The notes under the pieces: model-generated | Databases searched by the model: none | What the model saw: the letters and a program-made list of their open reading frames with translations, nothing else | What the model was told of the DNA's origin: nothing | Translations under genes and position numbers: made by a program | Assembly (NCBI GenBank): GCA_029856435.1 | Contig: JAHQXB010000155.1 | Location: 1 to 59,898 of the forward strand | Length of the DNA stretch: 59,898 bases | Source of the DNA: Candidatus Jordarchaeia archaeon | Lineage (GTDB): Archaea; Asgardarchaeota; Jordiarchaeia; Jordiarchaeales; Jordiarchaeaceae | Reading direction: 5' to 3' | Shown here: one piece after another, positions 19,415 to 19,910 of the stretch | How positions within the stretch are numbered: position 1 is the first letter of the stretch | How the letters are laid out: every line of letters begins with the position of its first letter

Positions 19415-19910
19415 TTACACCTTTTCGAGTTCGCTAAGGGCGGCCTTAAGCTCCTCGTCACTAGCTCCACCTTCAGACGCAGGCACAACTGGCTTCTCAG
19501 CAAGAAACTCGTCAAGAACACTCTTAAGTTGGGTCGATGCCTTCTTCATAACCAAGCGAATCATACCTATATTAACATCAGAATCAGTTATAACACAGAG
19601 AACACCTTTACCGCAACTTGCGGCAAAGATTTTCCCATTATCAAACTCTGAAGTTACAATGTTCAACTCGCCAATATCCAAGTTCTTACCCTGCTCTTCT
19701 GAAGCACAGTAAACTGCACTAGCAATAGCGCCTATCCCGTCATTCGACTGTCGGTGCCGCAACACTTCGACAAATGTCGACGGGATAGTATGAGAACTTT
19801 GATACGTGGGCTATGGTTAGTCCTGTTCTGTCCACGAGGATGACTTTTTTTATTCCGCTTTCTGCTTTAATGACATCGCTCAAAATTTTATCAAAGGCTT
19901 TTATATCCAT
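19415..19910 (-). CDS. Roadblock/LC7 (MglB-like) protein, 154 aa after removal of a 31-nt intron (exon 1 = 19774-19910, exon 2 = 19415-19742)
   Basis: ATG at 19910 gives MDIKAFDKILSDVIKAESGIKKVILVDRTGLTIAHVSKFSYYPVD, the roadblock N-terminal half. The ORF-track ORF 19415-19765 carries the C-terminal half (DGIGAIASAVYCASEEQG...NIGMIRLVMK) in another frame. Exon lengths 137+328=465 nt. Confidence 0.88.
19743..19773 (-). other. Putative bulge-helix-bulge (BHB) intron in a protein-coding gene, 31 nt
   Basis: Minus-strand RNA CUAUCCCGU-CGAC-AU^U-UGUCG-AA-GUGU-UGCG-GCAC-CGACA-GUCG-AA^UG-ACGGGAUAG: exon-exon stem, 4-bp central helix, opposed bulges and intron hairpin. Excision restores the reading frame. 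Confidence 0.8.

Follow-up and report, generated by a model that had tools for sequence, protein, structure and literature searches.

An interrupted roadblock gene next to an Arf/Ras-like GTPase

Between positions 18308 and 21081 of the window (the whole 59,898-nt stretch of DNA that was analysed), four roadblock/LC7 genes are arranged around one gene for an Arf/Ras-like GTPase. Read along the minus strand, a roadblock/LC7 paralogue with a LAMTOR5-like match (20072–20398; Pfam Robl_LC7, 6.5e-18) lies upstream of the gene described here, an MglB/LAMTOR3-like member of the roadblock/LC7 family that is split by a short insert. Downstream in the same gene string are the small GTPase (Arf/Ras-like; 18786–19379, minus strand; Pfam Arf, 5e-15) and a further roadblock/LC7 paralogue (18308–18673, minus strand; Pfam Robl_LC7, 1.3e-22). 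The GTPase is a likely partner of the roadblock proteins, and the cluster looks like an MglA/MglB-like or Rag/Ragulator-like module.

According to the ORF list and translation, the ATG at 19910 on the minus strand opens a frame of 56 aa that reads ...SKFSYYPVD, continues into ICRSVAAPTVE and stops; its C-terminal end is SKFSYYPVDICRSVAAPTVE, immediately before the stop codon. The C-terminal roadblock part, DGIGAIASAVYCASEEQG..., is found in a different frame from the 56-aa ORF and terminates at the stop codon at 19415–19417. Deletion of 31 nt (19743–19773) yields an open frame of 154 codons, with GAC AUU GAC GGG (D-I-D-G) at the joint. The predicted spliced RNA has the junction CCCGUCGACAUUGACGGGAUAGG; a read across it, 31 nt shorter than the DNA, would be CCCGTCGACATTGACGGGATAGG, and the predicted 154-aa protein would release the tryptic peptide FSYYPVDIDGIGAIASAVYCASEEQGK.

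The putative exon 1 (19774–19910, minus strand) runs from codon 1 to the second base of codon 46. On the AF2 model of an orthologue it corresponds to helix 1 and strands 1–2, and in tblastn searches it matches residues 1–46 of uninterrupted orthologues at 100%. The candidate intron (19743–19773, minus strand; 31 nt) is in phase 2, within codon Ile46. Exon 2 (19415–19742, minus strand) supplies the last base of codon 46, codons 47–154 and the stop codon, and encodes helix 2, strands 3–5, helix 3 and a C-terminal helix. On its own, exon 2 covers positions 40–91 of the Pfam Robl_LC7 profile with 22.9 bits (cut-off 23), the first 39 positions being absent, and it also matches the Pfam family MAPKK1_Int. 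Orthologues of 154–155 aa carry both PF03259 and PF08923, and the AF2 model of an orthologue (mean pLDDT 74) displays the full roadblock alpha-beta-beta-alpha-beta-beta-beta-alpha fold. By complete domain and fold, the predicted product is thus a member of the Robl_LC7 family. The source genome (G000) encodes no other orthologue of this gene, its further matches being paralogues with about 30% identity.

For the same locus, the protein collection holds an 88-aa fragment from the 59,898-nt contig (start MDIGELNIV, window 19415–19681), and in Logan contigs the locus is called as products of 116 and 57 aa. No gene caller recovered the 154-aa protein in the public and Logan calls for this locus, and the exact spliced protein is absent among the members of its protein cluster.

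A relaxed bulge-helix-bulge motif spans the insert

The insert and its borders can be folded into an hBHBh'-like motif (19731–19788, minus strand) consisting of an exon–exon helix, a central helix, two bulges and an inner hairpin. The outer exon–exon helix of 9 bp pairs CUAUCCCGU (19788–19780) with ACGGGAUAG (19740–19732). It is followed by the 4-bp central helix, CGAC (19779–19776) with GUCG (19748–19745), which is flanked by a 5' bulge of 3 nt (AUU, 19775–19773) and a 3' bulge of 4 nt (AAUG, 19744–19741). The insert closes on itself through the inner helices UGUCG/CGACA and GUGU/GCAC with a UGCG loop. Along with the inner hairpin, the 31 nt take in part of the 5' bulge, GUCG from the central helix and two of the four bases in the 3' bulge. 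If each bulge is cut behind its second nucleotide, at 19774/19773 and 19743/19742, the 154-aa ORF results, with a joint identical to that of uninterrupted orthologues; both bulges have U in third place, so that cuts one base further on yield the same product. A preliminary description of this DNA had proposed the 56-aa ORF, the change of frame, the elements of this fold and the removal of 31 nt to restore a complete 154-aa protein with D-I-D-G, and all of these agree with the sequence and coordinates in every detail.

The BHB fold has a free energy of -26.6 kcal/mol, close to the minimum of -28.0 kcal/mol; the minimum free energy (MFE) structure lengthens the outer helix instead. The exact BHB fold accounts for 3.7% of the ensemble and is not the MFE structure, whose z-score is -3.3 against 200 shuffles. 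A slightly sub-optimal BHB is usual for bulged motifs in nearest-neighbour models. The 3' bulge of 4 nt departs from the strict hBHBh' motif, which has two 3-nt bulges separated by exactly 4 bp; this extra nucleotide, already flagged in the earlier wording "relaxed BHB", is the sole departure from the textbook BHB. An alternative 3-4-3 fold with a U.G pair and a bulged A is 3.1 kcal/mol costlier. A relaxed motif, for which a central 4-bp helix, a flanking helix and one or more canonical bulges suffice, is accepted by (alpha-beta)2 or epsilon2 enzymes (for their substrate range, see PMC3241643 and PMC5829648). The insert has all three elements, in the form of CGAC/GUCG, the AUU bulge and the 9-bp outer helix, and in addition an inner helix of 5 + 4 bp.

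The intron belongs to no Rfam family, and a BLAST search found no second copy in its own genome, so it is not a repeated element. After splicing, an 11-bp hairpin (-18.4 kcal/mol) would be kept within the coding sequence.

The insert is confined to two species of one genus

An orthologue of the roadblock gene is present in 39 of the 41 Asgard genomes searched, and hundreds of database proteins have the length of 154–156 aa. When the spliced product was compared by tblastn with about 90 Asgard loci, an insert at this exact site was present in 4 loci and absent in about 86. The four loci come from a single genus (Jordarchaeum/Freyarchaeum) and represent two of its species, for each of which two assemblers gave the insert. 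One is the source genome, which belongs to an Asgard archaeon, as the preliminary description had supposed, and its insert recurs identically in the Logan assembly of SRR14702244. The other is 'Ca. Jordarchaeum madagascariense' (G002), which has a variant sequence at the same site, recovered identically in the Logan assembly of DRR045397. JGI metagenome contigs were scanned separately for the spliced junction and for variants of the intron, and neither was found.

Four congeners (G001, G003, G004 and G005) are uninterrupted, and all of them read YYPVDIDGIG, which is the product of the EndA cutting rule. Uninterrupted genes of other lineages read VD[IV][DE]GIG. The expectation that intronless homologues would read PVD[IV]DGIG is borne out by this series, which can be summarized as ...YYPVD[IV][DE]GIG....

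The two copies of the insert, in G000 and G002, differ at two positions of the motif (U-A to U-G and G-C to G-U), and in both cases the pair is kept. Covariation is weak for this intron because only two alleles are available; both changes are G-U wobbles, with a roughly estimated chance probability of about 0.3, and are thus suggestive rather than significant.

Splicing enzymes and tRNA genes of the host

The host encodes the enzymes that splicing of this type would need, as had been anticipated under the label of EndA/RtcB-type machinery. Two EndA paralogues are found in G000, on contigs C104 and C64. The first corresponds to the catalytic C-terminal half of fused EndAs and matches the alpha subunit of Aeropyrum pernix EndA (3p1z_B, 3e-45), with an alignment that is gap-free through the specificity-loop region KP...F. 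The second corresponds to the N-terminal half of fused EndAs, with a weak match to the model of the beta subunit. The specificity loop, with its lysine, gives crenarchaeal EndA its broad substrate range (PMC3241643), and Asgard EndAs have been described as (alpha-beta)2 enzymes with a specificity-loop insert (PMC5829648). RtcB is also encoded in G000. By gene content, the host is thus predicted to have both an EndA able to act on relaxed motifs and the ligase.

ARAGORN detects only 3 tRNA genes in G000 (3.54 Mb, 97.8% complete). In this lineage, 92–95% of tRNA genes have been reported to contain introns (PMC11291895), and the low count is in keeping with extensive interruption of tRNA genes at sites other than the canonical one.

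Inserts of the same type in other genes

Judged from sequence, the roadblock intron is no one-off, and comparable candidate inserts are found in other genes, essential ones included. The RtcB gene itself carries an in-frame, TGA-containing, BHB-like insert of 30 nt (G000 contig C93, about 1541–1570, minus strand; locus L094/L237). It is placed between LPD and AHQGYG, exactly where P. horikoshii RtcB (PDB 1uc2) shows a 10-residue gap in the alignment. The insert is shared by all six congeners, in G005 with a length of 29 nt, and occurs in 0 of 34 other matching Asgard genomes. One pair of its outer helix runs through the series U-A, U-G and C-G, and across the six sequences 88% of cells pair, compared with 30–46% in slid controls. 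If this insert is an intron, the splicing ligase would itself require splicing.

A BHB insert of 31 nt is found in cbf5 (G000 contig C73, 22783–22813, minus strand), with a counterpart of 32 nt and divergent interior in G005 (about 1483400–1483460). Its predicted cut sites split the codon for the catalytic Asp of GTLDP as G|AU, and in both codon and phase this agrees with the intron described in crenarchaeal cbf5 (PMC2738675). In the genomes of five Asgard families, TruB_N matches end at profile position 17 or contain stops. A third insert, of 29 nt, lies in a gene for an ArsA/Get3-like ATPase (G000 contig C81, 18336–18364, minus strand) and has the central helix GAGG/CCUC and the bulge AAA; the cut rule restores the Walker A sequence FGGKGGVGKT, and the insert is missing from G005.

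Five inserts are present in G005 (CP147778.1) and missing from G000: 31 nt in an HD-domain gene (near 987.07 kb), 34 nt in an OYE-type reductase gene (near 2494.68 kb), 56 nt in ahcY (near 1877.04 kb), a second one of 191 nt in ahcY (near 1876.3 kb) and 59 nt in a homologue of the RuBisCO large subunit (near 2174.6 kb). Most of the five have a 4-bp helix and opposed bulges. In G000, an in-frame stop in ahcY (C81, 48233–48235) leaves two adjacent ORFs in the same frame.

A genome-wide scan for strict BHB motifs, joined to a check of ORF restoration and a score of codon usage, placed the roadblock intron third; its counts were no higher than those obtained when the cut sites were shifted as a control, since gene borders and antisense frames also get through, and the scan is therefore unusable as a census. 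A relaxed scan, in which spliced peptides were compared by tblastn with 2.8 Mb of the congener G005, returned 'shared' candidates that were nearly all ordinary coding DNA, with only cbf5 standing out by its divergent interior and unequal length; its sensitivity is low, since the RtcB and ArsA inserts were missed. When ORFs of G000 and G005 were compared without reference to the motif, an approach blind to introns common to both genomes, the roadblock intron, the ArsA intron and the five inserts of G005 were found.

A mosaic patch around the junction

In the two alleles that carry the intron, the exon flanks make every one of the 10 pairs open to them. In 71 distinct uninterrupted alleles the same flanks form between 2 and 10 pairs, with a mode of 6, and one allele reaches 10. 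The site is thus pre-adapted to a helix, because the codons for YYPVD..DGIG are partly self-complementary.

Of the 32 positions around the junction (CDS 121–152), 10 separate G000 from G001 and G003, which lack the insert, and all 10 changes are synonymous; in the rest of the gene the figure is 17 of 430 (Fisher P 2e-6). Within the same patch, only one difference separates G000 from G002. Relative to G000, the uninterrupted G001, G003 and G004 have 9–10 synonymous differences in the patch, by which the 11-bp hairpin is removed. The tree of about 1.7 kb of flanking sequence is ((G002,G005),(G004,(G000,(G001,G003)))), with G000 nested among uninterrupted species, and the congeneric species are near enough to recombine.

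The history of the intron can be written as three losses or as one move. The pattern fits with a unit of intron plus helix that was moved by short-tract recombination. It also fits with an ancestral intron, in which case an intron-free allele, with codons that break the leftover hairpin, would have spread among close species.

Selection and alternative explanations

Both exons are under purifying selection. Between G000 and G002, the spliced CDS has dS 0.64 and dN 0.011 (dN/dS 0.017), and a single one of the 31 intron positions has changed, against about 13 changes expected at neutral sites (Poisson P 2e-5); these figures assume vertical descent, and a recent interspecies transfer of the intron and its flanks, which the mosaic pattern allows, would weaken both arguments.

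This conservation bears on the reading of the insert as an inactivating small palindromic insertion in a young pseudogene, the BHB-like shape being a by-product of a palindromic target site. The partly self-complementary codons between YYPVD and DGIG, which already allow 2–10 of 10 pairs in uninterrupted alleles, are in line with such an origin, as are the lack of the insert in 4 of 6 congeners and a public annotation limited to the 88-aa fragment. A dead gene is nevertheless very unlikely, as neither exon shows a second lesion in two species at this dS and dN/dS, and the gene is the sole orthologue in its genome. In addition, the insert brings its own half of the 4-bp helix, its bulges are placed such that canonical cuts restore the exact protein, and the hosts of the like inserts in RtcB and cbf5 cannot all be dead. 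A MITE with target duplication was also considered and rejected: the inverted repeat consists of codons.

Recoding during translation would take the form of a +1 shift at GAA-UGA-C, with ICRSVAAPTVE replacing Ile46, or of a ribosomal hop across the hairpin, of the kind known from gene 60 of phage T4. The first frame ends with UGA directly 5' of the GAC GGG of exon 2, the frame of exon 2 meets no stop within the insert (131 aa), and a strong hairpin covers the site. In the fold model this site follows a loop and marks the beginning of helix 2, a place where extra residues might be tolerated. Recoding is nevertheless highly improbable. A tRNA-Glu paired with GAA has no match in AAU, the codon of the +1 frame, and a hop between the GAC codons would lose two conserved residues. 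T4-like bypassing was rejected. Moreover, neither a shift nor a hop needs a 4-bp helix with opposed bulges, and the fact that the EndA rule gives the exact sequence of the homologues would be left unexplained. The sister inserts vary in the place of their stops and, between species, in length (RtcB has copies of 30 and of 29 nt), as would suit sequence that is removed rather than decoded.

We regard as similarly improbable a split gene, in which polypeptides of 56 and 116 aa (the latter from a GTG start at 19765) would be separate products that combine to a single roadblock domain. In two species neither ORF is broken, and gene callers report separate products. Against this, in the modelled fold, a compact alpha-beta domain, the break would part strand 2 from helix 2, the GTG start lies within the hairpin, the added tails are new sequence without a homologue, and the BHB geometry and the exact 31-nt fit would have no role. 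An assembly or sequencing artefact, the objection raised at the outset, is effectively excluded at the level of assemblies: besides the source genome, the insert is present in G002 and in two Logan assemblies, so that two species, different assemblers and no fewer than two data sets stand behind a total of four assemblies.

A putative EndA-type intron in a signalling mRNA

We conclude that the 31 nt at 19743–19773 are, with high probability, an EndA-type (BHB) intron in the mRNA of a single-copy roadblock/LC7 gene that is conserved throughout the phylum. The observations behind this conclusion are the motif, the exact restoration of the protein, the enzyme genes, the presence and absence of the insert among congeners, and the sister introns. 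From these sequence data we infer cleavage and ligation of the roadblock mRNA, which is very probably spliced by the tRNA-splicing enzymes.

In the proposed mechanism, the last 13 nt of exon 1 would find their partners at the beginning of exon 2 and in the 3'-terminal part of the intron, forming the exon–exon helix, the 4-bp central helix and the two opposed bulges. The (alpha-beta)2 EndA would then cut after the second nucleotide of each bulge, and RtcB would ligate the exons, with the 31-nt intron probably being circularised. The spliced mRNA would give the full 154-aa protein, and the unspliced mRNA only the 56-aa stump.

More tentatively, the genus may harbour a population of EndA-dependent mRNA introns in which turnover continues, the roadblock intron being one of them. 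A unit of about 60 nt, composed of the intron and the helix-forming exon bases, might then move between close species, or be purged, by short-tract recombination, and splicing of mRNA by the tRNA machinery might be routine in the lineage, extending even to RtcB and to cbf5 at the crenarchaeal codon. We consider this wider scenario possible, though doubtful.

The prediction is one of cbf5-type splicing in a signalling gene of an Asgard archaeon, a member of the closest prokaryotic relatives of eukaryotes. If confirmed by RNA, it would mean that the lineage has spliced protein genes without a spliceosome. Gene callers would then systematically mis-annotate such genes, as with the 88-aa public fragment here, and the presence and absence of the insert among congeners would provide a natural system for the gain, loss and movement of BHB introns.

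Comparison with known systems

In the literature searched, archaeal BHB introns inside coding sequence are reported for cbf5 only. The closest known system is the pre-mRNA intron in cbf5 of Crenarchaeota (Desulfurococcales and Sulfolobales; Watanabe 2002; Yoshinari 2006; Yokobori 2009, PMC2738675). Like that intron, the roadblock intron is short, lies in coding sequence and is framed by an (often relaxed) BHB made of exon and intron bases, with the predicted cut between the second and third bulge residues. The host has in both cases a heterotetrameric EndA with a specificity loop, predicted here from the genes, and gain and loss are lineage-specific. In contrast to cbf5, the intron described here is located in a roadblock/LC7 signalling gene, occurs in the Asgard phylum and is polymorphic within a genus, and its splicing is predicted from sequence.

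The roadblock intron is also reminiscent of the non-canonical tRNA introns of Freyarchaeia/Atabeyarchaeia and Thermoproteales, which are similar in length (about 30 nt) and share the hBHBh' or relaxed motif (PMC11291895; Marck and Grosjean 2003). The study of Freyarchaeia and Atabeyarchaeia describes tRNA introns only (PMC11291895). The enzymes involved are presumably the same, whereas the host RNA of the roadblock intron is an mRNA. As its exon helix is made of codons, a structural constraint is placed on synonymous sites.

A further parallel is provided by HAC1/XBP1 of eukaryotes, where a protein endonuclease cuts two stem-loops in an mRNA, a tRNA ligase or RtcB joins the exons, and the reading frame changes; the piece excised from XBP1 is 26 nt long. 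Unlike the roadblock case, HAC1/XBP1 splicing depends on Ire1 rather than EndA/TSEN, uses twin 7-nt loops instead of a BHB and is regulated by stress. Lastly, BHB sites have been described in mRNA leaders and rRNA precursors of Haloferax (PMC7714728). These sites extend the action of EndA to substrates other than tRNA, as predicted for the roadblock mRNA, but they are located in untranslated or precursor regions outside the coding frame, whereas the roadblock intron interrupts a codon.
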